DNA of 64,000 bases, from positions 83,680-147,679 of IMG/VR virus record IMGVR_UViG_3300032272_000003; one strand, written 5' to 3'. A program made the translations under genes and the position numbers. Under the pieces are notes generated by a model, which was not told the DNA's origin, searched no databases, and was given only the letters and a program-made list of their open reading frames with translations. Each line of letters begins with the position of its first letter. The stretch's first letter is position 1. The stretch is from a virus. Below are positions 6,934 to 59,842 of the stretch, piece after piece.

Positions 6934-7328
6934 AATTTGTTTGCCTTATAGGTTAGCTTGACCTCTGGATCAGGATGGGTCCATACGTTACAATGTAGTA
7001 CTGTTTTCTCAGAAACAGCATCTACAGTATCTATAGTATCTGGATAATAGTAACATTCCATGGACAGTTTATAAATCATATCACCACTATATTCATCAAT
7101 CTCATTTAACATAATACTAGCCAAGTACTCAATTGTAGTATCATCAATATATTCATGATGGAAATAGTATAGTTGACACCTAACACCATCCACGGTATGA
7201 ACAATCACACGTCTACCATTTGTGTTACCTCTTTCCACCCACGCTTTGTGGCAATCAATCATTTGAGCCGCAATAGGTATAAACTCTTTGTGAGTCAGTT
7301 CTGATAATCGCTTGTATTCAGATGTCAT
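6930..7328 (-). CDS. Family B paralog (ends VWTHPDPEVKLTYKANKL)
   Basis: Conserved C-terminus; GGGAG SD upstream of ATG at 7328. Confidence 0.8.
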   Translation of the reverse strand: MTSEYKRLSELTHKEFIPIAAQMIDCHKAWVERGNTNGRRVIVHTVDGVRCQLYYFHHEYIDDTTIEYLASIMLNEIDEYSGDMIYKLSMECYYYPDTIDTVDAVSEKTVLHCNVWTHPDPEVKLTYKANKL

Positions 7329-7333
7329 AAATA
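7326..7333 (+). promoter_or_regulatory. T4-type late promoter CATAAATA
   Basis: 5 nt upstream of the gp5 ATG (7339). Confidence 0.7.
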
Positions 7334-7338
7334 CTCCC

Positions 7339-8154
7339 ATGGATGAAATGACATTTAACGGTAACTATAGAGCCATTGTAACAGATAACAACGATCCTTT
7401 GCAAGCAGGAAGGGTTAGGGTTCGGGTTATGCCCATGTTTAAGGATGTTGACGCTGACGCTCTGCCCTGGGCGGTACTGGCTGATGCCTTTATGGGATCG
7501 CCTAATGCCGGGTCAGTTAATATACCTGAGATAGGTGCCAACCTATTTGTATTCTTTGAGGCCGGTGACCACCGGTACCCAGTATACTTTGCCACTGCTC
7601 CATCCATACAGAACGGTACACCCGATCTGCCTACCCTCACCAGGGAAGCAGACGATTCAGTTACCGATATCAATACCAATGCTAAGAAAGGTGTAGGGAC
7701 AGCCTCGGGTAGCTCCTGGGATGAGCCTGGTAGCGCCTATGCAGCCGTGTACCCAGAGAATAAGATTTGGAAGACCACCGATGGCCTATTGATAGAATTG
7801 GACGATACAGACGGTCAGCTTCGCTTCCACATATACCATCCAGCCGGTACCCGTATGGAGATCGATAAGGATGGCAACGAGGTTAACCACACACAGGGTA
7901 ATCGATTTACTGTTGTCGTCGGTGATGATAAAGTTTATATCACAGGGAATGGCGACATTACAGTAGATGGGGACATGGGTATTAAGGTGGGTGGTGATAC
8001 CAAGATAGATGTTACCGGTAATGCTGATATTATTGCTGCTGGGGATGCCTCAGTAGAGAGTGTTAACTCAACTGTTAAGGGGTCAGCGAGTGTTACTATA
8101 GATGGTGGCCCTGCTGTCACTATCACTGGTGGATTAATTAGTCTTAATCCTTAA
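7339..8154 (+). CDS. Baseplate central spike, T4 gp5/VgrG-like (OB fold plus beta-helix, no lysozyme domain)
   Basis: YRAIVTDNNDPLQAGRVRVRV...LPWA, P.IG...VFFE.GD..YP; C-terminal VxGD repeats. Confidence 0.9.
   Translation: MDEMTFNGNYRAIVTDNNDPLQAGRVRVRVMPMFKDVDADALPWAVLADAFMGSPNAGSVNIPEIGANLFVFFEAGDHRYPVYFATAPSIQNGTPDLPTLTREADDSVTDINTNAKKGVGTASGSSWDEPGSAYAAVYPENKIWKTTDGLLIELDDTDGQLRFHIYHPAGTRMEIDKDGNEVNHTQGNRFTVVVGDDKVYITGNGDITVDGDMGIKVGGDTKIDVTGNADIIAAGDASVESVNSTVKGSASVTIDGGPAVTITGGLISLNP
7375..7404 (-). promoter_or_regulatory. Candidate sigma70 promoter TTGCAA-18-(TG)TACAAT driving array 1
   Basis: Read from the - strand inside the gp5 5' end; has an extended -10. Confidence 0.5.
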
Positions 8155-8492
8155 AGCAATACCATTGCTTTGTATTCAAGTATCTGTGGATGGCTCTCAT
8201 CGTACCATACTGTCTTATAATCATCTGTTTGGTGGTCATCAAACCCTATAGCAACTGCAACTGATATTGTCTTGTCAGACCATAATCTATCAAACCCAGA
8301 TTTTAACGATTCATTATTATGACAGTACCCATACCCATACCATACATGATCGATGGTATCGAACCGGACAGCAATATAAAGCTCCAATGGGTAAGTGTTT
8401 ATAACACTCTTGAGGTGCTTCCTGACACTCTCAATAGCAGCATTCTTCTTTCTGAGATTATGGATGACTTCCCAATATGCTTTATTATTCAT
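8151..8492 (-). CDS. Family C paralog (ends VWYDESHPQILEYKAMVLL)
   Basis: Conserved W..H..YKA..L tail. Confidence 0.8.
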   Translation of the reverse strand: MNNKAYWEVIHNLRKKNAAIESVRKHLKSVINTYPLELYIAVRFDTIDHVWYGYGYCHNNESLKSGFDRLWSDKTISVAVAIGFDDHQTDDYKTVWYDESHPQILEYKAMVLL

Positions 8493-8495
8493 ATC

Positions 8496-8816
8496 TTAGA
8501 ATACCTCGTTTGCAATAAACCCTAAAGTGTCTGGATGATCATCATTAAACCAGATATGCTTGATTACCCTATAATCATTAATGTCAATATATTCAATCGA
8601 CACCCCTAATGTGTTGCAACAAATCTTCTGTTCCAGTAATTTAGTATTACCCATGTCATTAAGAGGATTAATTGTGTAGGGTATATTGTATAAATGTACC
8701 CAACGCCCGAACGAAAATCCAAAAACACGTAAATGTCTATTCCTGTGTGGTGATATACCACGGACACTCTCGACCATCTTCTCATTAATTTCAATTGACA
8801 TTCGTTTATAATTCAT
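8496..8816 (-). CDS. Family C paralog (ends IWFNDDHPDTLGFIANEVF)
   Basis: Conserved tail. Confidence 0.8.
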   Translation of the reverse strand: MNYKRMSIEINEKMVESVRGISPHRNRHLRVFGFSFGRWVHLYNIPYTINPLNDMGNTKLLEQKICCNTLGVSIEYIDINDYRVIKHIWFNDDHPDTLGFIANEVF

Positions 8817-8866
8817 TTAGACCTTTTAATCCTTAAACAAATCTCCCAATACCGTTCCCTACTCAT
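8813..8866 (-). CDS. 17-aa bridging mini-ORF MSRERYWEICLRIKRSK
   Basis: ATGA overlaps on both sides; resembles the N-terminus of 8151-8492. Confidence 0.55.
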   Translation of the reverse strand: MSRERYWEICLRIKRSK

Positions 8867-9222
8867 AATTGATCTGCCTTATACTGTAAATACTCTGGAT
8901 CATCTAGGTTCTCCCATACAACCTTACGGTGCATAAACATCTTTTCATCTACATACTGAATGGCAATAGCAATCGAAAAACCCATCAAATATGTATATAG
9001 CTCAATTAAGTTAACGGTACCATATTCTGGTGACGGTACCAAGGTACTACGTAGCCACCCATATTGTGTGGTGTACGTATAAAGCCTAAATGAATTGACT
9101 GAATTGACTGAATTGACTGATTTAAATTGTGTACGGGGGTTATGGGTTAGTATACCCATACTCATACTCACCAGGTCATCAACATTACCAACCCGCTTAA
9201 CGATATCATTCATCATCGTCAT
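8863..9222 (-). CDS. Family C paralog (ends VWENLDDPEYLQYKADQL)
   Basis: Conserved tail; internal SVN repeat. Confidence 0.8.
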   Translation of the reverse strand: MTMMNDIVKRVGNVDDLVSMSMGILTHNPRTQFKSVNSVNSVNSFRLYTYTTQYGWLRSTLVPSPEYGTVNLIELYTYLMGFSIAIAIQYVDEKMFMHRKVVWENLDDPEYLQYKADQL

Positions 9223-9608
9223 AACACTGTATCCGCTATGAACTCAGGGTAGTACGAGCTATCCTTATTAATCCACACCTCATGAGCTACCCCATGCTTA
9301 CTACCATTGGTAGAGGTGACGATCATGATCGATACTATATCATGATGTATTAGATGACACCCAACATACCATTCAACCCTCGTCGCCCATTCCCTACGTT
9401 GCTCTAATGTACTCTTATAGCTCACATCAGAAGCATATCTGAACGATTCAATCCTATTCCATCGTGATAGATTATCAACATCCGATGGGGCATACCATCC
9501 AACAACCCATGCATCATACGCCTGATAAGCTCCCATGTTCTCAGAGAGTCCCCATAGCTTGGATGATACTGTATTGGCTATCTGGTTGGCTAACATACTA
9601 TTCATCAT
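9219..9608 (-). CDS. Family C paralog (ends VWINKDSSYYPEFIADTVL)
   Basis: Conserved tail. Confidence 0.8.
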   Translation of the reverse strand: MMNSMLANQIANTVSSKLWGLSENMGAYQAYDAWVVGWYAPSDVDNLSRWNRIESFRYASDVSYKSTLEQRREWATRVEWYVGCHLIHHDIVSIMIVTSTNGSKHGVAHEVWINKDSSYYPEFIADTVL

Positions 9609-9847
9609 AACACATACAACGCTTTATGTAACATTATCGCTTCTTCTGTTGGGTTCTTAATATACCGGATCATCATATTACTCACTGCTACCAATCTTAA
9701 TTGATAATCATTAGGGATACATGTGATCTTCCTGACAGTATGAACGGCATTCTCCATGCATTTGATCCTCCAGATTGGATACGAACTATACTTCTGTTCC
9801 AATTGAGATAGTATACCATCGAGATGATGTTTATCGAGAGGACTCAT
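9605..9847 (-). CDS. Family A' paralog (ends IKNPTEEAIMLHKALYVL)
   Basis: IPxxxQLRxV plus family A tail. Confidence 0.8.
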   Translation of the reverse strand: MSPLDKHHLDGILSQLEQKYSSYPIWRIKCMENAVHTVRKITCIPNDYQLRLVAVSNMMIRYIKNPTEEAIMLHKALYVL

Positions 9848-10086
9848 AGCTCATACAACGCTTTATGTAACAACGTTGCCTCCGGGCATGGGTTATTAAG
9901 GTATTGGTGTAGATTGTGACACGCCACCAATCTTAATTGATAATACATAGGAATATCAATTATTCTCTTAACAGTTCTAACGGCATTATGCCTGTAATAA
10001 ACCCCTACCAGTGGATGAGATGATTTATACATCGTTTCCAATTGGTATAGGACAGTATCAAGATGATGTTTATCGATGGGTGTCAT
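9844..10086 (-). CDS. Family A' paralog (ends LHKALYEL)
   Basis: Close paralog of 9605-9847. Confidence 0.8.
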   Translation of the reverse strand: MTPIDKHHLDTVLYQLETMYKSSHPLVGVYYRHNAVRTVKRIIDIPMYYQLRLVACHNLHQYLNNPCPEATLLHKALYEL

Positions 10087-10343
10087 AATCGCCACAACGC
10101 TTTATGAGTCAGTTTGGCTTCCTCGGTAGGATTATTAATGTAACTAATCATGTAGGAACCTATGGCCACCGTTCTTAATTGTAAATCTTCGGGGATATTA
10201 CATTTACCGGAAAGACACTTCACTAAATCTGATATCATCCGATACGGGTACCTCTCATTGGGGGTCATAGTATTAAGCTTGATATCTATGCTGTCGAGTA
10301 TCCTACGTAGGTTATGTTCTTCGATGGGTGTTATAGGTTTCAT
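10083..10343 (-). CDS. Family A' paralog (ends THKALWRL)
   Basis: Conserved tail. Confidence 0.8.
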   Translation of the reverse strand: MKPITPIEEHNLRRILDSIDIKLNTMTPNERYPYRMISDLVKCLSGKCNIPEDLQLRTVAIGSYMISYINNPTEEAKLTHKALWRL

Positions 10344-10591
10344 AGCTCATACAATGCATTTTGAATCAGCACTGCCTCTTCGCATGGTTCATCTATATAC
10401 CGGATCATATATACAGCACATTCTACAAGTCTAACCTGTATGTCATCGGGGATACCACCACCATAGATTAACAACACGATGCTCCGTATCGACATCCTAT
10501 GGGATATCTTGACAACCTCACGTTCAGCACTATCATGCTTATTCAATAGATACTCGATTTCCTTAAGCTTCTCGGTAAGCTCCTGACTCAT
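10340..10591 (-). CDS. Family A' paralog (ends IQNALYEL)
   Basis: Conserved tail. Confidence 0.8.
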   Translation of the reverse strand: MSQELTEKLKEIEYLLNKHDSAEREVVKISHRMSIRSIVLLIYGGGIPDDIQVRLVECAVYMIRYIDEPCEEAVLIQNALYEL

Positions 10592-10842
10592 AACCCGTGT
10601 ATGGCCTTATGGAGGAATGTGACATCTTTAGTAGGCTGTATCAGGTGTGCCCAGGATGTAGAGGCTAGTTCGACGGCCCTGATCTGTAAATCCACTGGTA
10701 GGGGTTTATTACAATCCTCAAGTTTATACCGCAGATTTACACGGGAAAAGAACGTTTTCATGCCTCTGTTGTTGTCGGTAAGGAGTGCCCTCTCAAGCCG
10801 ACGACATGCTCTCTTTACTTTGCTCGCTTCTCTATTAGCCAT
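10588..10842 (-). CDS. Family A' paralog (ends LHKAIHGL)
   Basis: Conserved tail. Confidence 0.8.
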   Translation of the reverse strand: MANREASKVKRACRRLERALLTDNNRGMKTFFSRVNLRYKLEDCNKPLPVDLQIRAVELASTSWAHLIQPTKDVTFLHKAIHGL

Positions 10843-10845
10843 TAT

Positions 10846-11106
10846 CTATGACTCCCATAGTGCTTTGTGCATCAAAGTAGCCGCTGGTGTTGGATCAGTA
10901 ATATGTCCATACAGGTACGGGCTACACCTTATCATTTGTAATTGAACCTCTTCAGGGATAACCTCTATCCCTCTAACGATTGTAATGATCTGAATCTGAA
11001 TCTGAATCTGAAAAGCTGTTTGAAACGATTCTACCTTATCTTCATCACATGTGTCAATCAACATTTGCATGCTGGTCATCAAATCCATGAAATCGTTTTT
11101 CTTCAC
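10846..11106 (-). CDS. Family A' paralog (ends MHKALWES)
   Basis: Conserved tail; QI repeat. Confidence 0.8.
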   Translation of the reverse strand: MKKNDFMDLMTSMQMLIDTCDEDKVESFQTAFQIQIQIQIITIVRGIEVIPEEVQLQMIRCSPYLYGHITDPTPAATLMHKALWES

Positions 11107-11510
11107 CCCTTAAGGTTCTCCATCTTATATTCTGTATAGTGGCTATGGCCAGTGTTCTCCCATAGGATAGCACTGTCTGTCTGGGCGACCGGATGATTCA
11201 CGTCCAGGCCGGTGGCGTCCAGGAGGGTGATCTTAACAGCAACAGCACATGACCCATTGAATATCCCCTGTAGCAATGCACAAGTAATATCATGGTAAAT
11301 ATAATCCTCATAAGAGTCGGCATCGATTTTCACCCACCCCAGGCCATGGTGGTATGCCTCTATCAGGAACCCTATCTGTTCTGGGCATTTATAATCCCGT
11401 CTAAGGAATATCGTAACGGCATCGGTGATGTCCTTGCACAACTGTACCTGGGAATCCAACACTTCCTGAATCTTCATCTGTTCGTCAATCTGTTTCTGTT
11501 CTTCTGTCAT
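11103..11510 (-). CDS. Family C paralog (ILWENTGHSHYTEYKMENLKG)
   Basis: GW, AVK and tail motifs. Confidence 0.8.
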   Translation of the reverse strand: MTEEQKQIDEQMKIQEVLDSQVQLCKDITDAVTIFLRRDYKCPEQIGFLIEAYHHGLGWVKIDADSYEDYIYHDITCALLQGIFNGSCAVAVKITLLDATGLDVNHPVAQTDSAILWENTGHSHYTEYKMENLKG

Positions 11511-11836
11511 AGGTTCTCTCCTGCTATGTATTGGTAATAATCTGGATGGGCTTCATCAACCCATATAACCTCACTAACCTCACTCACTTTACTGTTGGTC
11601 GGGTGTTGGTACCAGTACCACCCGATCTTAAAGCCCACAGGGCTTTTCGTATTACTTAGTTGTAAAATCCTATCTCTCAGGATAGGATGGTAAATATTAC
11701 ACTGTGACCTCTCTATGAGCATGGTACTCCGCCATTTACAATCAGAATAGTACATCACCTCAAAGATAGAGGAACGCTTTTCACCAATCGATTTAATGAT
11801 ATCACTGGCTATACCTACGGCAACATGATGTTTCAT
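11507..11836 (-). CDS. Family C paralog (VIWVDEAHPDYYQYIAGENL)
   Basis: Conserved tail. Confidence 0.8.
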   Translation of the reverse strand: MKHHVAVGIASDIIKSIGEKRSSIFEVMYYSDCKWRSTMLIERSQCNIYHPILRDRILQLSNTKSPVGFKIGWYWYQHPTNSKVSEVSEVIWVDEAHPDYYQYIAGENL

Positions 11837-12171
11837 AGCTTCTCTCCTGCTACATATTCAAGATATTGAGGATGGTCCACATCCTCCCATAATATTACCT
11901 CAGATAATAATGTACCAGTCATACGATTAATATTACCAAACCCCCCACCATGTATTTGTAACTTAAAGCATAATGGGTTCTTTAATGCGAATGCTGTCTT
12001 GATCCTAGTCTTTAATATATCTTCATAAATAACCGCTGTTGGACCCTTAAATTTAGAACAACTCTCCCATCCCCAGTATAGGTCATAATGCATAAGTACA
12101 CATGTCCCTTCAGAAGCCACAGCAATTGCTATTATCTTATCTCTTAATTTAACAATACCTGCATTATTCAT
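11833..12171 (-). CDS. Family C paralog (ILWEDVDHPQYLEYVAGEKL)
   Basis: Conserved tail. Confidence 0.8.
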   Translation of the reverse strand: MNNAGIVKLRDKIIAIAVASEGTCVLMHYDLYWGWESCSKFKGPTAVIYEDILKTRIKTAFALKNPLCFKLQIHGGGFGNINRMTGTLLSEVILWEDVDHPQYLEYVAGEKL

Positions 12172-12539
12172 AACCTCTCCCTCGCTACGTATTCGATAAA
12201 ATCTGGATTATATGTATCCTCCCATATAATAACCCCATCTAAATCTAATAAAGGATGTTTGTGTGCTGGTCTGTGTATTGATCTGGAGGGATAACGCATT
12301 TGTATTTGTAACTTGAATATTATAGGAGAGTGCGTGACAAATGATGTCTGTATCCTACCCCTTACCATATCATGATAGGTTCTCACTCTCTTCTCCCCGG
12401 TAGTAAAAAATATACAACAGTCCGCCCATTCAAGACGTTTAGAGTCATAAAACGTGATCACACATCTATGATCATCGTCAAAACTACCAGACATCAGTAT
12501 TATCTCATTCGTTAATTCATTAATACCTGCATTATTCAT
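12168..12539 (-). CDS. Family C paralog (IIWEDTYNPDFIEYVARERL)
   Basis: Conserved tail; MNNAGI start shared with neighbour. Confidence 0.8.
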   Translation of the reverse strand: MNNAGINELTNEIILMSGSFDDDHRCVITFYDSKRLEWADCCIFFTTGEKRVRTYHDMVRGRIQTSFVTHSPIIFKLQIQMRYPSRSIHRPAHKHPLLDLDGVIIWEDTYNPDFIEYVARERL

Positions 12540-12928
12540 AACATCATCCCAGCAATAAAGCCCAGGTAGTCTGTATGATCTGTATCAGCCCACACCATTA
12601 TCAATCCTTCTTTGGGCGGATGCTCATTATAATTACCCCGACCCCAATCCCAACTACCTGACCCCATCCAGACCATATGATCCCAATCAGATATTATCGC
12701 TATACCTATAAGGCTTGGGTAGGGTAGATACCACGTTAACGTATTCCTGATATTGTTTCTCTCTATTGTGCCAACCCCAGCATCAAACTCAATATTAGGA
12801 ATAAAATGATCCTTAAAACAATACACCAGTCGATAGAAACTATTATTAGTATCGAAGGCATCCCGTTGGGTGGTCTTGGTCTTCTTAATAATCATATCCG
12901 TGACCTCTCCCACGTCTCTACTGATCAT
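12536..12928 (-). CDS. Family C paralog (VWADTDHTDYLGFIAGMML)
   Basis: Conserved tail. Confidence 0.8.
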   Translation of the reverse strand: MISRDVGEVTDMIIKKTKTTQRDAFDTNNSFYRLVYCFKDHFIPNIEFDAGVGTIERNNIRNTLTWYLPYPSLIGIAIISDWDHMVWMGSGSWDWGRGNYNEHPPKEGLIMVWADTDHTDYLGFIAGMML

Positions 12929-13251
12929 AACATATCGTCCGATTTATATTCGAGGTAATATTCATGCTCTTTATTCTCCCATATTAACACATTAGGGTCA
13001 ACTAACACATCACCAGTGAACATTTTGTCATCAAATACGAGCTTAAGGGCAACAACGTTGTCATTAAAGGCGTCATTAATCTTACGACGAATCATTCGAT
13101 AGTCGCCCAACATGGGTATGCACTTGAAGTATCTGTTCCAGCCCCTCTCAGGGATGTATCCGAATAAAGCCATACTATAATACTGCTCACCCATGTTTCG
13201 TGCCACCTTGGTAATGTTACCAGAGAGGGTATTACTCGTATTATCAGTCAT
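12925..13251 (-). CDS. Family C paralog (IWENKEHEYYLEYKSDDML)
   Basis: Conserved tail. Confidence 0.8.
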   Translation of the reverse strand: MTDNTSNTLSGNITKVARNMGEQYYSMALFGYIPERGWNRYFKCIPMLGDYRMIRRKINDAFNDNVVALKLVFDDKMFTGDVLVDPNVLIWENKEHEYYLEYKSDDML

Positions 13252-13586
13252 AACATATCGTCCGCTTTGTATTCCAGGTATCTACTGTGCTCTTCATCCT
13301 CCCATAATAACATACTAGGGTCAGGGGCATCAATCATTCCAACAGCCCATTGTTGAGAGAATATTAGCTTAACAGCTACTATACTATGAATGTTTCCATA
13401 ATAACCAATGTATCTTTTAAATTGACCATATCTATCCTTAGCATGTCGGGATGCGAAGGTCATATAATATGACCACCCTTCACTATCATGATAGACCCAT
13501 AACCCGCACGAGATATACCATGTCGAGTATTCCAGGGAATTGTTTACGATCATACTTGCCAACTTCGATATGGTATCGGCATTCAT
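13248..13586 (-). CDS. Family C paralog (LWEDEEHSRYLEYKADDML)
   Basis: Conserved tail. Confidence 0.8.
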   Translation of the reverse strand: MNADTISKLASMIVNNSLEYSTWYISCGLWVYHDSEGWSYYMTFASRHAKDRYGQFKRYIGYYGNIHSIVAVKLIFSQQWAVGMIDAPDPSMLLWEDEEHSRYLEYKADDML

Positions 13587-13924
13587 AACATCACATCAGC
13601 AACAAATACATCATAATCCTTATGTTCTTTATTCTGCCATAGGATAATCTTTGATCTTGGTGCAGCAAATGGGGCAATGGCAATGGCAATTATATCCTCA
13701 TCCACACCCACCCCAAATACCTTCAGACTCTCACTGATCCTGAGTACCTGACAACGGGTTGCATCCATATCGAACCCTACTAACCATGACCCCATGGCGG
13801 AGTTAATACTGGCAGCATGATAGGCATACATACTGTAGTACCGGTAATAAGTAGTACCGTTACCCCTCTTATGGAGATGCTTAGCGGCTTCTGCTATCTT
13901 CTCAGCCAGGACATCTACATTCAC
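13583..13924 (-). CDS. Family C paralog (LWQNKEHKDYDVFVADVML)
   Basis: Conserved tail. Confidence 0.8.
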   Translation of the reverse strand: MNVDVLAEKIAEAAKHLHKRGNGTTYYRYYSMYAYHAASINSAMGSWLVGFDMDATRCQVLRISESLKVFGVGVDEDIIAIAIAPFAAPRSKIILWQNKEHKDYDVFVADVML

Positions 13925-14277
13925 AACATCACCTCAGCTATAAATACATCGTAATCGATATGCTCTTTATTCTCCCACATGATAATCTTATCATTGCCCT
14001 TGTCACTCATACTTACAAGGGCAATAGCAATTACCTTATCATCATCAATGTAATCAGCGATATTACGTTGTATATGGAATACCTGGCTCTGACTGGCTAC
14101 AATAAGAAGTCCTCCACCGAACCAACCACTATTGGCTAGGTTGAAGTATCCAGCTTTATATACCACTACCCGAAACTTCCAGTGCTGACCACCAGACTGC
14201 CGGTAAATTGCCTTCGCAGTATCGGAGATTTTCATGGCCAGGCCATGTACATTAACACCTTTTACGAAATAGTTCAT
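13921..14277 (-). CDS. Family C paralog (MWENKEHIDYDVFIAEVML)
   Basis: Conserved tail. Confidence 0.8.
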   Translation of the reverse strand: MNYFVKGVNVHGLAMKISDTAKAIYRQSGGQHWKFRVVVYKAGYFNLANSGWFGGGLLIVASQSQVFHIQRNIADYIDDDKVIAIALVSMSDKGNDKIIMWENKEHIDYDVFIAEVML

Positions 14278-14633
14278 AGGCTCTCGCTCGCAATATAATC
14301 AAGGTACTCAGGATGATCCTCGTTCTTCCATATGATTTGTTCATATATTTGGCCATTGTAATTGAAAGCAATCGCTTTAACAGCAACACACTTCCAATCT
14401 TCAATCCAAATACGTAAAGCACTTCTTAAGTCAAGCCTATCTGTGGTCATTGCAAAATCATTGCTAATGATGCTAATACCAAATCCAGAATACCATATTT
14501 CATTACTATATGGTGACACCCTGACACCAACTACACTATTTAATTCACATAGTTGTTCGTAACTATTTAATTCACATAGTTGTTCGTAAAGAGTATTCTC
14601 AATACTCTCGATTGTTCTATTATCACTACTCAT
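14274..14633 (-). CDS. Family C paralog (IWKNEDHPEYLDYIASESL)
   Basis: Conserved tail; 27-bp internal tandem duplication. Confidence 0.8.
   Translation of the reverse strand: MSSDNRTIESIENTLYEQLCELNSYEQLCELNSVVGVRVSPYSNEIWYSGFGISIISNDFAMTTDRLDLRSALRIWIEDWKCVAVKAIAFNYNGQIYEQIIWKNEDHPEYLDYIASESL
14535..14588. repeat. Perfect 27-bp tandem duplication (YEQLCELNS x2)
   Basis: actatttaattcacatagttgttcgta twice. Confidence 0.95.
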
Positions 14634-14671
14634 AACATCTTATCCACCTTTTCTTGTATATGAGAATCCAT
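14630..14671 (-). CDS. 13-aa leader mini-ORF MDSHIQEKVDKML
   Basis: ATG 6 nt after the -10 box; TGA overlaps the ATG of the first array gene. Confidence 0.5.
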   Translation of the reverse strand: MDSHIQEKVDKML

Positions 14672-14677
14672 GGCAAT

Positions 14678-14707
14678 ATATTAACCTAATAAATAAGGGT
14701 ATGTCAA
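14678..14707 (-). promoter_or_regulatory. Candidate sigma70 early promoter TTGACA-18-TAATAT driving array 2
   Basis: Perfect -35 inside the first codons of gp25. Confidence 0.6.
14688..14695 (+). promoter_or_regulatory. T4-type late promoter AATAAATA
   Basis: 5 nt upstream of the gp25 ATG. Confidence 0.7.
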
Positions 14708-25822: not shown

Positions 25823-25844
25823 TAGCTGATATAGTATAGTAAAT

Positions 25845-32117: not shown

Positions 32118-32123
32118 CGATTA

Positions 32124-32160
32124 AGAATGAGCCGATTATATCCTGTATTCGGCTCATTCT
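32124..32160. terminator. 12-bp inverted repeat, probable terminator after the lysis cassette
   Basis: AGAATGAGCCGA...TCGGCTCATTCT. Confidence 0.7.
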
Positions 32161-32310
32161 CACAAATAACGATTGTAATCTCCCTAATAATAATAATAAT
32201 ATATGAATATTACGAATTTGTCAATATTCCCCCTAGGGGTCATGTATTTTGACCACTTTTAGAACTACTTAGTTCCCTCTAATTTACACTCATTTTTAGT
32301 TTATTATGTA

Positions 32311-35909: not shown

Positions 35910-35942
35910 GGATTTTTTACCTATCATTTCATAAATACTATT

Positions 35943-36020
35943 GAAGCGGGTGTATATAATGTCGCCTACGTTAGAAGTGTTTTTCATCCTCCTTTTTGAT
36001 ACTTCACACCCGCTCCTTTT
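35943..36020 (+). ncRNA. Candidate late small RNA (three-way junction, anti-SD loop), antisense to terminase leader
   Basis: CATAAATA at 35930-35937; P1 AGCGGGTGT/ACACCCGCT, P2 TAATGT/ACGTTA, P3 GAAGTGT/ATACTTC; G-U pairs favour + strand. Confidence 0.4.
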
Positions 36021-36049
36021 ACTACTTCCTTTTACATACCTCAAACTTG

Positions 36050-36057
36050 TATTTATA
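36050..36057 (-). promoter_or_regulatory. Late promoter TATAAATA for terminase
   Basis: Perfect T4 late consensus just downstream of a terminator. Confidence 0.75.
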
Positions 36058-36063
36058 CATAAT

Positions 36064-36089
36064 AAAAAGCCCCGTATTACCGAGGCTTA
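36064..36089 (-). terminator. Intrinsic terminator
   Basis: AAGCCTCG-gtaata-CGGGGCTT then T run on - strand. Confidence 0.75.
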
Positions 36090-36113
36090 AAGTTCTTCTT
36101 ATTGTCGTTTTTG

Positions 36114-36752
36114 TTATTCGGATTTCAGAACCTTAATATAGTCTGAAAAAAGAGCCTCATGGACAGTTTTACATACTTTATCAAGCTCTGGCATAACATC
36201 TATGATACTAATGGGGATGAAATGCTCACGAAGTAGTACCTTCTGTGAATAAATGAAGAGAAGGTTGTTTACGTTCTTGGCACCTGCTAACTCATCTAAA
36301 TTTTCTTCGATAAGATCAGCTATCGAACGACGTTTACGAACACCACTGACTGTGATACCTTCCTTATCATCGCCTGACTCGTTCACTGCTTTCTTACGTT
36401 TGGTTGGGGATTTCTTAGCACCCTTACCCTTTGCAGTTGGTCTGGTGGCTGTTACATCGATTGGTTGGATAATCTCAATCTCAAGATCGTTAACAGGAGT
36501 GAACAGACGTTCATTCTCTACTATAATCTCCAGACGAGAGTTATATTCACCAGGGCCGATCATCTCTTTGAGTACAGGAAGGTTGAAAACTGCTTCTGCA
36601 TTGACGACAAGTGTTTCGAATGTCAACTGGACACCCTCTTTCTCGATTACATACCGAGCCTTGATGTTTTTGGTTTCAATACCCTTAACATCAACACCAA
36701 ATTCAATTGTGTTGACTTCTCTGTTGTCTAAAATTAGTCTTTCCGCTGCCAT
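36114..36752 (-). CDS. Hypothetical late protein (beta-sandwich N-terminus, basic linker)
   Basis: ORF in late - strand operon. Confidence 0.75.
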   Translation of the reverse strand: MAAERLILDNREVNTIEFGVDVKGIETKNIKARYVIEKEGVQLTFETLVVNAEAVFNLPVLKEMIGPGEYNSRLEIIVENERLFTPVNDLEIEIIQPIDVTATRPTAKGKGAKKSPTKRKKAVNESGDDKEGITVSGVRKRRSIADLIEENLDELAGAKNVNNLLFIYSQKVLLREHFIPISIIDVMPELDKVCKTVHEALFSDYIKVLKSE

Positions 36753-37108
36753 ACTCTCACCGTTATTGATTTCAATATCTGCCTGATATGATGATACTTG
36801 ACAGATATGCCGCTTGTTACTGTATTTATACCCTTCGTAACTTTAATGATTAGGCGTCCAATCTTGTCCTTAGCATCGTAGCTTCTCTTCCAGGTTCTAC
36901 CCCTATAAGTGACGATGATGTCGAATGTCTTCTGATCCTTTGCAGGGGCAGGACCAGCACCACCACCGGTACCAAATGATATCTTGATTGGGCCTAGAGA
37001 GAAGTAACCAATAATCATACCAGAACTAACAAACGAGTTGGCGTATCCCTTACCTATTACTCTACCTCGGGTGACTATACCCTTTGCTATTCGTGGTAGT
37101 GCAGCCAT
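36734..37108 (-). CDS. Hypothetical basic late protein
   Basis: Coupled ORF. Confidence 0.7.
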   Translation of the reverse strand: MAALPRIAKGIVTRGRVIGKGYANSFVSSGMIIGYFSLGPIKISFGTGGGAGPAPAKDQKTFDIIVTYRGRTWKRSYDAKDKIGRLIIKVTKGINTVTSGISVKYHHIRQILKSITVRVWQRKD

Positions 37109-37638
37109 TACTGAGGCACACGCTCGAAGATGTCAATGATTGACCTAACACCAGAATCATCATATAGATCGAATATCTTGAATGGAGTGGTACCATCATC
37201 TTCATATATGGTCAGGGTCTTATTAATGGGGTTGACAAAGGTACGGTTACGGTCGTACTTTAGAATCTCGGTAACGATAGCCAGGGTTTCGCTGTTTAAT
37301 GCCTGTTCAAACCCAGTGGTACCGGCAGTCAAATGGTCCAGTTGATCTTCTTCCCACGTCTCAAAGGCAATATCCTCGACATACGATTCATTGAAGGCAA
37401 CATGGTATTGTTGGTTCTGTGGAATACCGGCTCCAGCAGTAACAATGAACCCATAGTTAGTTCTGTTGTCATAAGTAGTGAATATATACTTGTAAATACC
37501 ATCACCAACCTCTATCATATCATCAGTGACAATGACGGAATCTGTGGTGGCACTGATTTCCCAAATCTTGATGGTAGGGGATAATCCGGGTGTGGGTACT
37601 CCTGTCCTCGTTATATATGCTGTTATGATTTTGGGCAT
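37108..37638 (-). CDS. Putative virion structural protein
   Basis: GLSPTI...M.EVG.G.YKY.F, LTIY.DDG.TP...F.L.D; AAGGAG SD and late promoter. Confidence 0.7.
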   Translation of the reverse strand: MPKIITAYITRTGVPTPGLSPTIKIWEISATTDSVIVTDDMIEVGDGIYKYIFTTYDNRTNYGFIVTAGAGIPQNQQYHVAFNESYVEDIAFETWEEDQLDHLTAGTTGFEQALNSETLAIVTEILKYDRNRTFVNPINKTLTIYEDDGTTPFKIFDLYDDSGVRSIIDIFERVPQ

Positions 37639-37659: not shown

Positions 37660-37678
37660 TATTTATGAGTGATAAATA
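37660..37678. promoter_or_regulatory. Back-to-back late promoters (CATAAATA on -, GATAAATA on +)
   Basis: tatttatg at 37660-37667 and gataaata at 37671-37678 between divergent genes. Confidence 0.7.
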
Positions 37679-37716: not shown

Positions 37717-40257
37717 ATGTCAATTGTAAATACGAAGAAGTCCTATGATGGTGACATGTCGGACGTAACTAAGGAACCAACCGGGTTCCCAAATCGCACG
37801 GATTCAGTAATATCATTCGATGAACTAACAAGAATTTTTACAATTGAACCTGTTGATGTATCATTCGACATATACACGAAGGGTAATCAATATACCATAA
37901 CAGGTACTTCCCAAGTCACTATCGATGATATAGAAGGTGATTATTTTATATATTTTGATGAGTTAGGAGAATTACAATTTGTAGCTGGATTTGATCCAAG
38001 AGTAATATCAGATTGGGTTTATACATCAGTTATACACTGGGATGCAACCAATAAAAAAGCTATAATATTTGGAGAAGAGCGCCATGGTTTGACTATGGAT
38101 GGAGCAACCCATAGCTATCTACACACCGTTAAAGGATCACAATATATTTCCGGGTTTGCACTCGATAATATTCTACCAGGCGAAGCCGGGGATTTAGATA
38201 TTCATGCCCAAATTAGTGTCAATAACGGGCAGTTTAGGGATGAAGATATCCTCCATAATATCATCGATGATGCTCCCCAAAATTTGAGCCTACCAGCAAC
38301 TATTCCAGTTATTTACCGAGACGGCGTTGATGGATATTGGAGAATGAAAACTGCTGATTCATTCCCCATGATTTATTCAGGAACTGCTGGATATGTTGGT
38401 GCCAGTGGGAGATTACCATTCAATGAATTTACCGGCACCACATGGCAATTGACCGAAATTGGTAATGGGAAATTTGTTGTAATGCATATTTTAGCAACCA
38501 ATGATACCAGATGGCCAATAATGGCTATACAGGGGCAAAGTGAATATATAACATCATCTGAGGCTAAGGATGGAGTTGCTTCCGAATTACTAAATTTAGC
38601 CGGACTACCATTTCAAGAATTTGTTGCCCTTGGTTCTATTATTTTTACGTCCTCAAACAACATGACAAATACACCACAAGCCGCAGTCATTGCTACAGAT
38701 GACGGTCAGCCATATTTCGACTGGAGAGAAATTACTTCGTTCGCTGGTGGAGGTGTTGTACAGGATCATGGTTCTTTATCTGGTTTATTAGACGATGATC
38801 ATCCACATTACCACACTGATGCTAGAGGTGATGCCAAGTATTCACAATTAGGTCACAATCATGTTGTCTCAGAAGTGTTGATAGGGGATTACGTTGGTGG
38901 TGGTACTCCATCTATCGATGTTGGCACATTAGGGAACGGTTATATAGATTCTGTTGGACTTATTGGTAATAATGGTTTTGGATTGGTAACACAGAATGGC
39001 GCGTTAACTATTGATATAGCCGCAGGTGCAATCAATATTAGAGCCACCGATGATGTCACATTACCGTTAGAGTATCTTGGATTTGCCGCAGTCACGAATT
39101 TGGACGTGTCTGTCTTTATCAATGGGCCAGCTTTAGTATATCTTGACTACACCAATGGTGCATCTATTCAAGTATCAGCTACCCATCCAGACCCATCCGA
39201 AGTGAGACAAGATATCATTTTGTTGGCTGAAGTTCATTTGGGTGCCACTTCCATCAATGACATACATGACATAAGACAATTTGTAGGCAATCATGTGCAA
39301 GAGAATACCATATTACATAAGAACATTTTTGGCACATTAGTTGATGGACAGATCAGCAGTGAAACTGGTGTTAGAAATTTGGTAGTGGAATTTGGAGGAT
39401 TCTATCGTTGGGGCAATAATATTCAACAACAACAAACATTCGATTCATCGGGTACTGATACTTTCGTATATTGGTATAGAGATGGAGTGGGTGGGTGGAC
39501 TACTCTCACTTCTGAAACACAGCTCAACAATACCCAATATGATGATGGTACTGGAACATTAAGCAATTTGAATAATAACAGATATAGGAAGGACTGGATT
39601 TTTAGGAGTCTGTCTGGACAGGTTAATGTGTTACTGGGACAAGTCCAGCATACATTATTATCTTCGGCAATCGATGAGCCAGTCCCAACATTACCAGATG
39701 GGTTAGGTGAGTCTGTACATATATACCTACTATCCACTTATATTATTCAAGAAGGGACAAGTATAGGAATATTCACTGATCTTGCGAATAGGTTCAAAGG
39801 GGGTGGTGCTGGGTCAACAACAGATCATGGAACCTTATCTGGATTGTCTGATGATGACCACCTACAATATCACGACGATACGAGAGGGGATGCAAGGTAT
39901 TTCACCAAAGCAACCTATCAACACGCAGCGTCAGAAGGACAATCATCAACAACAAATACAGTATTCCAACAAAAACTAAGAATGACTACTGGTACATTAC
40001 CTTCGGGTGATTATAAGATAAGTTGGAATACAGTTGTAACTAGTACGGTTGGGGATACCGCAGAAATGCAAGTCCAAATAGATGATACTATTACAATAAA
40101 CTTAAGTTCTACATCTGAGACCGATGCTTCATCGATGTCTGGTTTTTATATTGCTACTGGGGTATCAGGTGTTCTCGATATCGACATAGATTACAGGGCA
40201 GTATCCGGCACAGCATACATAGAATATGCGAGATTGGAAATTACACGGGTGAACTGA
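37717..40257 (+). CDS. Large virion fibre-like protein with two DHG.LSGL.DDDH repeats
   Basis: 846 aa; His/Asp repeats typical of phage fibres; late promoter. Confidence 0.7.
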   Translation: MSIVNTKKSYDGDMSDVTKEPTGFPNRTDSVISFDELTRIFTIEPVDVSFDIYTKGNQYTITGTSQVTIDDIEGDYFIYFDELGELQFVAGFDPRVISDWVYTSVIHWDATNKKAIIFGEERHGLTMDGATHSYLHTVKGSQYISGFALDNILPGEAGDLDIHAQISVNNGQFRDEDILHNIIDDAPQNLSLPATIPVIYRDGVDGYWRMKTADSFPMIYSGTAGYVGASGRLPFNEFTGTTWQLTEIGNGKFVVMHILATNDTRWPIMAIQGQSEYITSSEAKDGVASELLNLAGLPFQEFVALGSIIFTSSNNMTNTPQAAVIATDDGQPYFDWREITSFAGGGVVQDHGSLSGLLDDDHPHYHTDARGDAKYSQLGHNHVVSEVLIGDYVGGGTPSIDVGTLGNGYIDSVGLIGNNGFGLVTQNGALTIDIAAGAINIRATDDVTLPLEYLGFAAVTNLDVSVFINGPALVYLDYTNGASIQVSATHPDPSEVRQDIILLAEVHLGATSINDIHDIRQFVGNHVQENTILHKNIFGTLVDGQISSETGVRNLVVEFGGFYRWGNNIQQQQTFDSSGTDTFVYWYRDGVGGWTTLTSETQLNNTQYDDGTGTLSNLNNNRYRKDWIFRSLSGQVNVLLGQVQHTLLSSAIDEPVPTLPDGLGESVHIYLLSTYIIQEGTSIGIFTDLANRFKGGGAGSTTDHGTLSGLSDDDHLQYHDDTRGDARYFTKATYQHAASEGQSSTTNTVFQQKLRMTTGTLPSGDYKISWNTVVTSTVGDTAEMQVQIDDTITINLSSTSETDASSMSGFYIATGVSGVLDIDIDYRAVSGTAYIEYARLEITRVN

Positions 40258-40329: not shown

Positions 40330-40701
40330 TTATAACATAATATCAATTAGTATGGTTTCTAAATCGAAGTCTTCATCACCGATCTCCCACTTATATAATA
40401 CAGATTCTCCTTTAAAATTACCACGACTGATGAAAAAGTCAGTACAGTGTATAGTGAAGATAATACCATCATGATCAACAATCACCCATTCGAATTCATC
40501 ATACTCACCCTCAATGTTCATATCAGTCTCTTTGATCATATTCCACAGTACAACACGACGTAGGACTCTTAAGTATTTAAGCTCAACAGGTACCATTGGT
40601 GATGATGACACGTATTGCCCCGGTACACATCTCCATTTGGTCTTAATGAGGTTATCATACCGTGCAGGTAAGTCTTTTAGATTGTATTTTTGATATCTCA
40701 T
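40330..40701 (-). CDS. Family E paralog (EGEY)
   Basis: Shares EGEY...F.I and D.E..L...L end with neighbour. Confidence 0.75.
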   Translation of the reverse strand: MRYQKYNLKDLPARYDNLIKTKWRCVPGQYVSSSPMVPVELKYLRVLRRVVLWNMIKETDMNIEGEYDEFEWVIVDHDGIIFTIHCTDFFISRGNFKGESVLYKWEIGDEDFDLETILIDIML

Positions 40702-41042
40702 AGGCTGACACTCATCAGGAAGGCTTCAATATCTACATTATTAGGTATTCCAGCCCGATCATGCTTATCATACCATCGCCATAGGTATTCTTTATCATTA
40801 TAATGGAGTGCCAGGGCTGGTATTGAAAAACACATATCACCCTGCTTGATTAAAATATATGTCTCATCGTGGTATTCACCCTCAACCATATGATATGCTA
40901 CCACATTATGACGATTCATCGGGAATGATTTTATAGATTTGAAACGACCATAGTGGTGTAATCCAAAGAAGCCATAACCAGCCATTTTGAATTCTTGAAC
41001 ATGAAATAACAGCTCAGATGCTGGGAATTTGAGAAACTTCAT
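40698..41042 (-). CDS. Family E paralog (EGEY)
   Basis: As above; probable start MKFLKF. Confidence 0.75.
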   Translation of the reverse strand: MKFLKFPASELLFHVQEFKMAGYGFFGLHHYGRFKSIKSFPMNRHNVVAYHMVEGEYHDETYILIKQGDMCFSIPALALHYNDKEYLWRWYDKHDRAGIPNNVDIEAFLMSVSL

Positions 41043-41169
41043 CCAGCGACACCAAGAAACAGGGCTATCACGAACCATCCCTTTACCAACCCCACAACAC
41101 ATATGGCTAATGTGGCTACAAGTGCCACGATAAAAGGGCGTCCACTTTAATCTTCAAGACCTTCTTCAT
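41039..41169 (-). pseudogene. Small membrane-protein gene broken by a 1-nt frameshift
   Basis: SD AGGAG plus MKKVLKIKVDAL; -1 frame FIVALVATLAICVVGLVKGWFVIALFLGVAG ends in ATGA overlap. Confidence 0.45.
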
Positions 41170-41182: not shown

Positions 41183-41190
41183 TATAAATA
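41183..41190 (+). promoter_or_regulatory. Late promoter TATAAATA
   Basis: Perfect consensus 5 nt before ATG 41196. Confidence 0.8.
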
Positions 41191-41195: not shown

Positions 41196-41224
41196 ATGGT
41201 ACACTACTATAATGCTCAAGTCAA
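41196..41224 (-). promoter_or_regulatory. Candidate sigma70 promoter TTGACT-17-TACCAT
   Basis: The -10 overlaps the gp15 start codon. Confidence 0.5.
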
Positions 41225-52052: not shown

Positions 52053-52067
52053 TTTAATAGTTTGACC

Positions 52068-53483: not shown

Positions 53484-53914
53484 TATAAAATTGTTTCCTC
53501 TGCTCCACGGACTATGAGATCAGTGTAAGCCTTCAGATGCCATTTCATGTCATCTAAGGTGTTTAATGCTCCCCTGGTAAGTTCTATGACTACCTTCATG
53601 GTGTTAAGTTCCTTTCTCAGAGCGAGATAGGTAGGATCAGACAGGGCATAGTTGTGAGCCTCTGTATAGGTCATGTCCATGCTTTGGTTGTTTCTAAGTC
53701 GTTTGGTGGCGTTCTCCCGAGCCTCTTCAAGCTCATATTCGAACTCGTCTTCTGCCGCTTTGGCGAATGCCCTGTATTTCTCCCACTTAATCCTTAACTC
53801 AGAATACCGCTTGATAACATCCTTGATAAGTTTGTCATCGAGGCATAGCTCATCTTCAAGCTCGTTATAGTCATTGATGATATCTTCTTGTAACTCTTCA
53901 ATTGCTCTACTCAT
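53483..53914 (-). CDS. uvsY: UvsY-like recombination mediator
   Basis: Coiled coil with Y..SDP.Y...LD...W.LK; lies between UvsX and UvsW. Confidence 0.75.
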   Translation of the reverse strand: MSRAIEELQEDIINDYNELEDELCLDDKLIKDVIKRYSELRIKWEKYRAFAKAAEDEFEYELEEARENATKRLRNNQSMDMTYTEAHNYALSDPTYLALRKELNTMKVVIELTRGALNTLDDMKWHLKAYTDLIVRGAEETIL

Positions 53915-53945
53915 ATAAATACCTTTAAATTAAGGTGAGACTAAA

Positions 53946-54200: not shown

Positions 54201-54203
54201 TTA

Positions 54204-55512: not shown

Positions 55513-55759
55513 TAACCTCCTAGAATATTAATCCGATCAGCACAAAGGCCGATACTATTACGACAACACAAGGCCAACAAAGTTTACATTGGCCGTCCAT
55601 ATATCCTAACACTTGACATAGTGACTTCGGTAACATATCAATTATCTCCCTGTTGTATTTGGTCAATGATGAACATTCCCAACAATACAAATGGTGCTGC
55701 AATCAAAAGTTCTGTCATTTCGTGCTCCTATAAATAAAGGAAAGTAAGGAGGATTTACA

Positions 55760-56245: not shown

Positions 56246-56279
56246 GTATAAATACAAGCATTAACTACGGAGATACAGA

Positions 56280-57909: not shown

Positions 57910-57918
57910 CCCTCCAGG

Positions 57919-57948
57919 CCACCCCACCCCACCCCATAGCCCCACCCT
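57919..57948 (-). other. G-quadruplex-forming tract
   Basis: GGGTGGGGCTATGGGGTGGGGTGGGGTGG between convergent stop codons. Confidence 0.7.
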
Positions 57949-58216
57949 ATAACCTTTCAGCCGCCTGATTGATATTTAAAGTCTCCAAATGCTTCTTGGC
58001 ATTCTCTTTATGCATAAACGTGTGAACGATCACCCATTCGTTCGGGCGTTCAAAATGTTTCTCTTTATATTTTTTAATATACCACACACGACCACATATC
58101 ATTGTGACTTGCCCCTCATCTATAGTTTCCACATTTCTACAATAATACATAAACTTACCAGGAAAGACTCTATGCTCGCCGTTACGACCACCAGTTCTTA
58201 TATAAAATCCGCTCAT
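57947..58216 (-). CDS. Hypothetical protein (paralog of frameshifted 59166-59446)
   Basis: G.V(W/Y)...W....F..K..A....(L/I)NI. Confidence 0.75.
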   Translation of the reverse strand: MSGFYIRTGGRNGEHRVFPGKFMYYCRNVETIDEGQVTMICGRVWYIKKYKEKHFERPNEWVIVHTFMHKENAKKHLETLNINQAAERL

Positions 58217-59169
58217 TACACAGGCTCACCCATATCAATAGGATCACGCATACCCAGGAATACGGGGTGACGTGGTTTCTCCTTGACACCATAGTCGAAG
58301 TACTTGTACTTGACAAGCTGACCGGTCAATGAATCACGGTTCTCCCACATATGAATCCTGGTGGCCTCATCAAAGCCGGTACCAATCTTGAAGTCGATAC
58401 CCGTCTCAACATCACGGCAGAGAAGGGCACCCAGAAGCTCATCAGCGACCTTGTTGTCCTTGTGGCTGCTCCGCACCGTATGACCAAGTGCATCCGTAGT
58501 AGCCTCGTTTAGATTCCGCATGAGTGGTTCAAAACCCTCGATCACAGCCTCAGAGTCAGAGAAGTTCTTCATCTTCAACAGAATACCCTCATTGGTGGTG
58601 CTACGACCGTTCTTATAAGGGCCGGTAGGATCACGCAACATGATACCTTCATAACCCTGCTCGATAAACTCGTTGGCCTTGGTGCGTAGCTCTTCAGCGT
58701 TGTGCACCATAACATGGGGTACGAAGTGTATATCCATGACGAAACCTGCCGCCTTTTCAACATTTTCAATATCAACATTCATCATAGCGGCTATCTGATC
58801 TTTAGCGAACTGTAGACGCTCATCGAAGGGACGGTCATCGCCATCCTTGAATACGTGATCAAATACATAGAATGATACTTGGTTCTGGGTGTCGTGTGAC
58901 ATCACAGCACTGTTAGTCTTCCGGTAGCAGTCTGGTGCACATGGGCTTCCCATAATCAACTCACCATCAAGACCTTCCAGAATATCACCGTACATCGCTT
59001 GTACCAGCTTATTAGGAATAGGTTTCAGGGTACGACTGACCAATTGACTTTCTCGTGCAATACATCGTATGCCGTCCAACTTTGGCGACACCAACTTCGG
59101 ATAATCTAGTTTGTCTAAATCTGCCGGTACCTTCCCACTCAACATGGGCTTCCACTTTTTATCGCTCAT
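58216..59169 (-). CDS. ATP-dependent DNA ligase
   Basis: PKLDGIR motif I, DGEL, FYVFD, EGIMLR, LLKMK, GTGF, PRHPVF. Confidence 0.97.
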   Translation of the reverse strand: MSDKKWKPMLSGKVPADLDKLDYPKLVSPKLDGIRCIARESQLVSRTLKPIPNKLVQAMYGDILEGLDGELIMGSPCAPDCYRKTNSAVMSHDTQNQVSFYVFDHVFKDGDDRPFDERLQFAKDQIAAMMNVDIENVEKAAGFVMDIHFVPHVMVHNAEELRTKANEFIEQGYEGIMLRDPTGPYKNGRSTTNEGILLKMKNFSDSEAVIEGFEPLMRNLNEATTDALGHTVRSSHKDNKVADELLGALLCRDVETGIDFKIGTGFDEATRIHMWENRDSLTGQLVKYKYFDYGVKEKPRHPVFLGMRDPIDMGEPV

Positions 59170-59446
59170 ATATTAATCACCTTCTTATAATCTTCGGCTT
59201 CCTTCTTGTTAGAGAAGTGCCCTAATGTCGTCCAAGCCAACACCCAGACTTGAACCTCAGCTATACTATTCCTATTGACAATCCTTTGGATCATTTGTTC
59301 AACTTCATAAACCTTACCAATTACTTTTTTAGCTTCTTTTCTCCATACGGGGGAGTATATCTCGTCCAGAAACCAAAGGTGCCAGTTATACGTACTCTAC
59401 CGAGCTGGTCGATTGATGGCGGTGGTGGCGGTGGTGTTAAACCCAC
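59166..59446 (-). CDS. Gene split by a -1 frameshift (41-aa 0-frame product, about 93-aa transframe product)
   Basis: AAGGAG SD plus GTG; CTA AAA AAG TAA; -1 frame continues to ATGA overlap with ligase. Confidence 0.6.
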
Positions 59447-59552
59447 TTTAATACTCCTTAATGGTAAATGTTGTTGTGAAAGAATTAGTGTCATAATTTT
59501 AATGCCTTCATATACACATCAGCATCCTTACGGCTATGAAACTCACCGAGAG

Positions 59553-59795
59553 TTACCCAGTCATAAAAGGGAGATTTAATCCTAATAGTTTTACCAACTG
59601 ATTCCTCCCAGTCACATCGTACCTCGTCAACATAATATGTCCACCCGAATAACTTGATCCTTTTCTTACCATCAATGTCAGTATATCGGCGGTATATATA
59701 TAAAGATCACTACGCTCGATACGAAGGTTCCCAACCTCACTAGCCATTGGGAATCGAATTTGTGGTGGAAATGCTGGGTCAAAGTACTCATCCAT
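59553..59795 (-). CDS. Hypothetical protein (probable start MDEYF)
   Basis: Downstream of a sigma70-type promoter. Confidence 0.55.
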   Translation of the reverse strand: MDEYFDPAFPPQIRFPMASEVGNLRIERSDLYIYTADILTLMVRKGSSYSGGHIMLTRYDVTGRNQLVKLLGLNLPFMTG

Positions 59796-59802
59796 ATCAC
59801 AC

Positions 59803-59831
59803 ATGCTATCATTTAAGATATCCGAAGTCAA
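59803..59831 (-). promoter_or_regulatory. Sigma70 promoter TTGACT-17-(TG)TAGCAT
   Basis: The -35 overlaps late promoter AATAAATA 59830-59837 on the + strand. Confidence 0.6.
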
Positions 59832-59842
59832 TAAATAGATGT

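Follow-up and report, generated by a model that had tools for sequence, protein, structure and literature searches.

The question raised by this locus is whether early and late promoters that occupy the same DNA at strand switches of a phage genome make up a dedicated regulatory switch. The window analyzed is a stretch of 64,000 nucleotides, bases 83680-147679 of the 147,679-bp IMG/VR contig IMGVR_UViG_3300032272_000003; coordinates are window positions unless marked contig. At four divergent gene junctions of this window, a first-pass annotation had described a sigma70-like promoter on the minus strand interleaved with an xATAAATA late promoter on the plus strand (sites i to iv), and had interpreted the pairs as hard-wired, mutually exclusive switches. 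All eight motifs, hexamers as well as late boxes, were found at exactly the positions and with the sequences given there. Both promoter classes are those already known from T4-type phages, and a switch is not needed to explain the overlaps; two independent, ordinary T4-like promoter classes probably overlap here through tight genome packing.

The phage represented by this metagenomic contig is clearly T4-like, as judged by the OB domain of gp5 (Pfam PF04717 and PHROG 430), gp25 (Pfam PF04965, E-value 8e-21), gp6, gp15 (Pfam PF16724, E-value 2e-39), TerL (assigned by PHROGs; at most 40% identity to phage proteins, the best being those of Alishewanella phages) and a homologue of the late sigma factor gp55. 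The latter, detected with T4 gp55 as the query (E-value 9.3e-13, 36% identity), is encoded at contig 76219-76509, approximately 7 kb upstream of the window (7.2-7.5 kb before its start). A strong early-type promoter, TTGACA-18-TACAAT with the -10 element starting at contig 76550, was observed upstream of this gene. The GC content was 42-43%, so the DNA is not markedly AT-rich as the annotation had it. The window alternates between long arrays of small open reading frames (ORFs) and DNA-metabolism genes (ligase, UvsY-like) on the minus strand and blocks of virion genes on the plus strand, which results in eight divergent junctions, designated a to h, with gaps of 10-94 bp.

Three of the four reported pairs proved credible. 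At junction b (minus-strand start 14633, plus-strand start 14701, gp25), the early promoter of site i occupies 14678-14707 on the minus strand, with TTGACA at 14707-14702, an 18-nt spacer, TAATAT at 14683-14678 and a predicted start near 14671. Its -35 element falls on gp25 codons 1-3, and the plus-strand late box AATAAATA (14688-14695), 5 nt before the gp25 ATG (14701), indeed lies within its spacer. Site i heads the minus-strand array 8151-14633, with AAGGTGG and then the ATG at 14633 downstream. At junction d (minus-strand start 41102 or 41169, plus-strand start 41196, gp15), the early promoter of site iii occupies 41196-41224 on the minus strand (TTGACT 41224-41219, 17-nt spacer, TACCAT 41201-41196). 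Its -10 element sits on the gp15 ATG, as described, being the reverse complement of gp15 codons 1-2, and its predicted start near 41189 is within the plus-strand late box TATAAATA (41183-41190), 5 nt before the gp15 ATG (41196). Downstream of it are ACAGGAG, a mini-ORF of 17 amino acids (41169-41116) and then the ORF 40698-41102, and the leader fits the consensus of the early leaders.

At junction g (minus-strand start about 59795, plus-strand start 59843), the early promoter of site iv occupies 59803-59831 on the minus strand, with TTGACT at 59831-59826, a 17-nt spacer and TAGCAT at 59808-59803, preceded by TGA, in which a TG was flagged. Its predicted start is near 59796, an ATG (59795) is located at this start, and the gene downstream is poorly defined. 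The overlap reported with the late box was confirmed: the -35 element and the plus-strand AATAAATA at 59830-59837 have 2 bp in common. Five nucleotides after this box comes the ATG (59843) of a virion structural gene labeled gp14 in the annotation; its only match, in PHROG, was to a virion structural protein and it had no Pfam match, and the name gp14 is not confirmed. Since the core elements overlap, the sigma70 polymerase and the gp55 polymerase would be unable to occupy junctions b, d or g (sites i, iii and iv) together.

Whether the sigma70-like motifs exceed chance was examined with two position weight matrices (PWMs). The generic sigma70 PWM used approximate Hawley-McClure hexamer frequencies; the phage-specific PWM was trained on 21 promoters of the contig, chosen by the generic PWM, with the four test sites left out, and its scoring makes no use of those frequencies. 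By a plain count, site i agrees with the consensus at 10 of 12 positions and sites ii to iv at 9 of 12, a class showing no enrichment over shuffled sequences (76 against 64.2 ± 7.5 and, in a second scan, 51 against 53.0 ± 6.8). This would fit the explanation that all four sites are chance matches and that transcription of the arrays depends entirely on promoters at other places, as would the background level of site ii and the approximately 13 matches per strand that shuffles still yield at the score of site i. The weighted scores point the other way and make this explanation very unlikely. The generic PWM gave 12.2 for site i and 12.9 for each of sites iii and iv, and scores of at least 12.2 were found at 41 minus-strand and 4 plus-strand positions of the contig, compared with 13.4 ± 2.6 per strand in 30 dinucleotide shuffles; strong matches are thus biased 10-fold toward the early strand and exceed the shuffles 3-fold. 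With the phage-specific PWM, sites i, iii and iv scored 16.6, 16.1 and 17.5 and fell within ranks 23-33 on the minus strand, site i (rank 30) having one equal on the plus strand and site iv (rank 23) none. At the shuffle rate, about 0.06 matches would be expected in the seven early/late junction zones of approximately 100 nt each, and 2-3 were observed.

The context of the matches agrees with these scores. The early-promoter class of the phage reads TTGACA-N17/18-(T)GG-TAnnAT, and sites i, iii and iv match it. The best minus-strand matches have TGG or GG directly before the -10 element (an extended -10), followed by a leader resembling cacttACAGGAGaa and then a start codon; sites i, iii and iv likewise have a Shine-Dalgarno (SD) sequence and/or an ATG downstream, the arrangement seen at other early promoters of the contig and one that also speaks against chance. 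Within plus-strand blocks, minus-strand matches of at least 12.2 were located at the head of the block in three cases and otherwise between genes, at 25838 and 32201, and none was deep in coding sequence. Sites i, iii and iv are therefore very probably real early promoters, as far as sequence can tell. Their -10 boxes (TAATAT, TACCAT and TAGCAT) are weaker than the internal ones, which is expected if the overlap constrains the early promoters and not if it was designed. On the plus strand, the 4 strong sigma70-like matches fall below the shuffle level, and this depletion suggests selection against spurious host-type promoters reading against the early genes.

Site ii is different. At junction a (minus-strand start 7328, plus-strand start 7339, gp5), it lies at 7375-7404 on the minus strand inside gp5, with TTGCAA at 7404-7399, an 18-nt spacer and TACAAT at 7380-7375. 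The generic PWM gave 10.5, and scores of at least 10.4 occurred at 104 minus-strand and 64 plus-strand positions against 68 in shuffles; its phage-specific score of 9.4 was equaled or exceeded at 108 positions of the minus strand and 74 of the plus strand. Site ii is a chance match at background level and probably no promoter. The late box of this junction, CATAAATA (7326-7333, plus strand), 5 nt before the gp5 ATG (7339), does include the start codon of the first gene of the array, as had been noted: the CAT within it is the minus-strand ATG of a 132-amino-acid ORF (6930-7328), with GGAG before it. Of the sigma70-like promoters proposed at four junctions, those at i, iii and iv are thus credible from their PWM scores and the strand bias. 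A PWM scan against shuffled background, which the annotation had named as a check, places these three sites above chance by weighted score, and neither site ii nor the 9/12 consensus class.

As to the late class, the contig contains 44 copies of ATAAATA, with about 44 expected from its composition, so there is no overall over-representation. Their placement is highly non-random: in the window, 14 of the 18 plus-strand copies closely precede a gene on that strand, among them gp5, gp25 and gp15, and a late box, with T, A or C as its first base, is present at all eight divergent junctions. Three minus-strand copies precede genes of the TerL-containing minus-strand block 34299-37638 and mark it as late. 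With boxes heading virion genes and a gp55 homologue in the contig, the annotation's assignment of this class to a phage gp55-like sigma factor is supported, and the xATAAATA boxes appear to behave as gp55-type late promoters.

The distance between box and gene was unusual. The boxes at junctions a, b, d, g and h (ATAAATA from 7327, 14689, 41184, 59831 and 61313, respectively) are exactly 5 nt before an ATG, and further boxes with this N5-ATG spacing were found at contig 78978 (plus strand), 67578 (minus strand) and 8922 (minus strand). An ATG at this offset follows 8 of the 44 ATAAATA copies in the contig and 2 of 65 in T4, where TATAAATA-N5-ATG occurs once. Within the window the spacing was found at 5 of 8 divergent junctions versus none of 6 co-directional late promoters, and two relatives of the gp15 locus (L007 and L008) have it too. 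In T4, the late box occupies positions -13 to -6, in agreement with the gp55 open complex, where the adenines at -12, -9 and -8 are flipped (PMC7892883). With this geometry, boxes 5 nt before the ATG would place the transcription start at the A of the ATG, implying leaderless late mRNAs. Literature searches on leaderless T4-type late promoters and on 'anti-late RNA' found nothing relevant. With many late genes predicted to lack a leader and to start only 5 nt after their box, the early promoters that face gp25, gp15 and the 'gp14' gene would be genuinely interleaved with the late ones. This exact leaderless spacing is a more unusual feature of the phage than the overlaps themselves.

T4 itself appears to have comparable junctions, although there they are predicted: the T4 records used carry no promoter annotation, and the T4 pairs are PWM predictions. 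The generic E. coli PWM was poorly calibrated on T4 (13 plus-strand versus 9 minus-strand matches), and a self-trained T4 early PWM was used instead, with the consensus TGTTTACA...GTGG-TATTAT and scores of at least 14 at 45 minus-strand positions versus 1 plus-strand position. In T4 (NC_000866), a predicted minus-strand early promoter at rnh/34 (150734-150762) is 5 bp from the plus-strand late box TATAAATA of gene 34 (150767-150774), and another at 23/24 (107253-107281) is 7 bp from that of gene 24, the plus-strand TATAAATA at 107288-107295. Such pairs are similarly frequent in the two genomes, namely 2 of about 45 early promoters in T4 (predicted) and 3 of about 41 in the contig. The same two promoter classes thus lie on opposite strands in both, and in the early consensus of T4, too, TGG precedes the -10 element. 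The difference is that the predicted T4 elements abut without being interleaved and the T4 late genes there have leaders of 22-29 nt, whereas in the contig the late box falls within the spacer of the early promoter, on its start site or on its -35 element; this deeper interleaving follows from the late ATG being only 5 nt after the box. The predicted T4 early promoter at 23/24 would read antisense into gene 23.

The alternative closest to the annotation is that the overlaps are selected cis-acting switches, in which sigma70 holoenzyme blocks leaky gp55-dependent transcription or makes antisense RNA early and the gp55 complex late in infection occludes the early promoter, shutting off the accessory arrays. 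The physical overlap of core elements at sites i, iii and iv is what such switches would look like, but the details make them unlikely. The predicted start-to-start distances are about -30 bp (i), +29 bp (ii), -7 bp (iii) and -47 bp (iv); a geometry that differs at every site indicates that there is no module. A credible pair is present at only three of the seven early/late junctions, and approximately 38 other strong early-type matches, which must be shut off as well, have no late box on the opposite strand within 10 bp; a mechanism acting in cis at three junctions could not explain their shut-off. Antisense silencing in particular is not supported: an overlap of antisense RNA with late mRNA is predicted only at site ii, which is at chance level, while the transcripts from sites i, iii and iv would diverge from the late ones.

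Regulated switches of divergent or overlapping promoters are known from phi29 (A2c/A3 with p4), lambda (PR/PRM with CI and Cro) and 186 (pR/pL interference). They have dedicated regulator sites and conserved geometry and have been shown experimentally. The contig junctions resemble them in having close, opposed promoters whose occupancy would be mutually exclusive, and differ in that they show no regulator site and no fixed geometry.

Junction c (minus-strand start 37638, plus-strand start 37717) gives an internal comparison. Here two late boxes stand back to back, 5 bp apart, at 37660-37678 on both strands (TATTTAT-GAGTG-ATAAATA), and serve the minus-strand late block 34299-37638 with TerL and the plus-strand gene 37717-40257. 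This late/late packing is as exclusive as that at the early/late junctions, but no temporal logic applies to it.

The relatives of the gp15 locus also bear on the question. Near relatives of the phage were not found among sequenced phages by megablast or tblastn, nor were close ones found in viral_contigs by a single-protein scan or an exact 23-mer scan, and the closest gp15 homologue among 5.8 billion proteins had 61% identity. Eight gp15 loci with 45-61% identity were compared, three by gene map only and five (45-58% identity) with DNA; the latter are too distant for hexamer conservation and were compared in architecture only, and the hosts of the relatives may differ. A strand switch at the gp15 start was found in six of the eight (L005, L006, L008 and L021, and the gene maps P0002 and P0006), with different partner genes across the switch (tail-tube-like, TnsA-like, a dCMP deaminase array or small ORFs). 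At the gp15 junctions of the five loci with DNA, no minus-strand match reached 12, the best being 11.9, and the absence of the pairing there also argues against a selected switch. The 5′ end of gp15 looks like a recurrent strand-switch point and a hotspot for the insertion of accessory genes.

Known T4 regulation was considered as well. T4 late genes are off early for want of gp55, gp33 and the loaded clamp (PMC2988020); late promoters in need of gp55 would be off early regardless of any cis-acting element. In T4, every early promoter is subject to early shut-off, whose mechanism is described as incompletely understood (PMC3014915), and this leaves room for a contribution in cis. Of the hard-wired, mutually exclusive switch, what holds is that both promoter classes are real in all probability and share DNA at sites i, iii and iv; a dedicated switch is not supported, given the varying geometry, the three of seven junctions and the relatives.

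Overlap through packing has a simple basis. An early promoter needs a core of approximately 30 bp and a leader of 25-40 nt, and the junction gaps measure only 10-94 bp, so that an early promoter placed there is bound to cover the late box; the overlap itself adds no information. Several points nevertheless weigh against this reading. When the first 50 codons of the late genes were resampled with synonymous codons, the minus-strand score was reproduced in only 9.8% (site i), 4.2% (site ii) and 5.3% (site iii) of the trials, with a Fisher combination of about 0.01. This marginally significant signal hints at codon choice that preserves the hexamers; it supports real promoters and would also fit selection for overlap. 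All three credible pairs have exact N5-ATG late boxes, which packing by itself would not demand. T4 gp45 and gp33 used as queries gave no match in the contig, which is only 43% complete according to CheckV, and gp33 diverges quickly.

Under the packing explanation, transcription would proceed as follows, with promoter activity, start sites and timing predicted from the motifs and from T4. Host sigma70 holoenzyme would start the minus-strand arrays of small early genes at promoters of the TTGACA-N17/18-(T)GG-TAnnAT class, and polymerase carrying the phage gp55-like sigma would transcribe the structural genes of the plus strand from xATAAATA boxes. At sites i, iii and iv, the early promoter would extend over the late box into the first codons of the late gene. 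By analogy to T4, timing would be governed in trans, through the synthesis of gp55, its co-activators and the shut-off of early promoters, and the overlap in cis would contribute at most local competition. The marginal codon signal and the N5-ATG boxes of all three credible pairs leave some room for such competition as a secondary effect, with both polymerases contending for a shared 30-50 bp where the gp25, gp15 and 'gp14' blocks begin. A cis-acting layer of this kind in the early-to-late transition, beyond the trans control of T4, is unlikely; if shown, it would modestly extend what is known of transcriptional timing in T4-type phages. Under the packing explanation, overlapping early and late promoters at T4-like strand switches would be a consequence of compaction, not to be read as dedicated switches without functional data. 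For this uncultured phage, the analysis provides a promoter map with an early consensus that includes an extended -10 and a common leader, and with late boxes at all divergent junctions.

The junction early promoters might instead make mainly short products, namely mini-ORFs of 13 and 17 amino acids or short RNAs, and not drive the arrays. An ATG occurs 6-7 nt after the -10 element at sites i and iv, a 17-amino-acid ORF with a strong SD sequence follows site iii, and the similar promoter at 32201 has a 12-bp hairpin downstream. Between the junction promoters and the downstream genes, however, no terminator was found, and the gene chains are tightly coupled, which makes short products as the main output very doubtful. 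The element at 32120-32230 (minus strand), in a gap of the late plus-strand cluster, contains a strong early-type promoter, TTGACA-17-TATTAT, at 32201 with a PWM score of 14.7; the hairpin, perfect over its 12 bp, is approximately 40 nt downstream, and paralogous leaders are found at window 63133 and contig 293. The element may encode a small early RNA, antisense to late genes, or may be what is left of a promoter cassette in decay.

The pairing had been called recurrent, having been reported at four of the eight junctions; it is credible at three of the eight, and junctions c, e, f and h are without it. No sigma70-like match above 7.8 was found within 220 nt of junctions e, f and h, and none above 9.9 at junction c. 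At junction e (minus-strand start 53914, plus-strand start 53946), the plus-strand late box TATAAATA (53914-53921) adjoins the ATG of the minus-strand UvsY-like gene. The plus-strand late box of junction f (minus-strand start 55718, plus-strand start 55760) lies at 55729-55736, beside the SD sequence of a minus-strand ORF of 26 amino acids. At junction h (minus-strand start 61300, plus-strand start 61325), the plus-strand late box TATAAATA (61312-61319) is separated by 5 nt from the ATG at 61325 and directly adjoins the SD sequence of the minus-strand gene 60995-61300. On the minus strand, no terminator-like site was detected across gp5 or at the junctions without a credible pair. The early blocks lacking a junction promoter (a, e, f and h) would probably be reached by read-through from upstream early promoters, antisense across the short late blocks.

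Several minor features were observed at the junctions. The minus-strand mini-ORFs 41116-41169 (17 amino acids) and 55638-55718 (26 amino acids, hydrophobic) have a strong AGGAG SD sequence directly against the plus-strand late box, and the string CTCCTGTATAAATA is present at both junctions d and h. Between the DNA ligase gene and the 'gp14' gene, a stretch of 670 nt (59170-59842) has no clean ORF. It was ruled out as the N-terminal part of the ligase, since the 317-amino-acid ligase has its own SD sequence and KxDG near residue 30. Two minus-strand frames in this stretch end in ..DADVYMKALKL and ..EAEDYKKVINI, resembling tails in the small-protein arrays, and may be frameshifted or decaying array genes, with an (AT)n run at about 59697-59705 where the frame changes.

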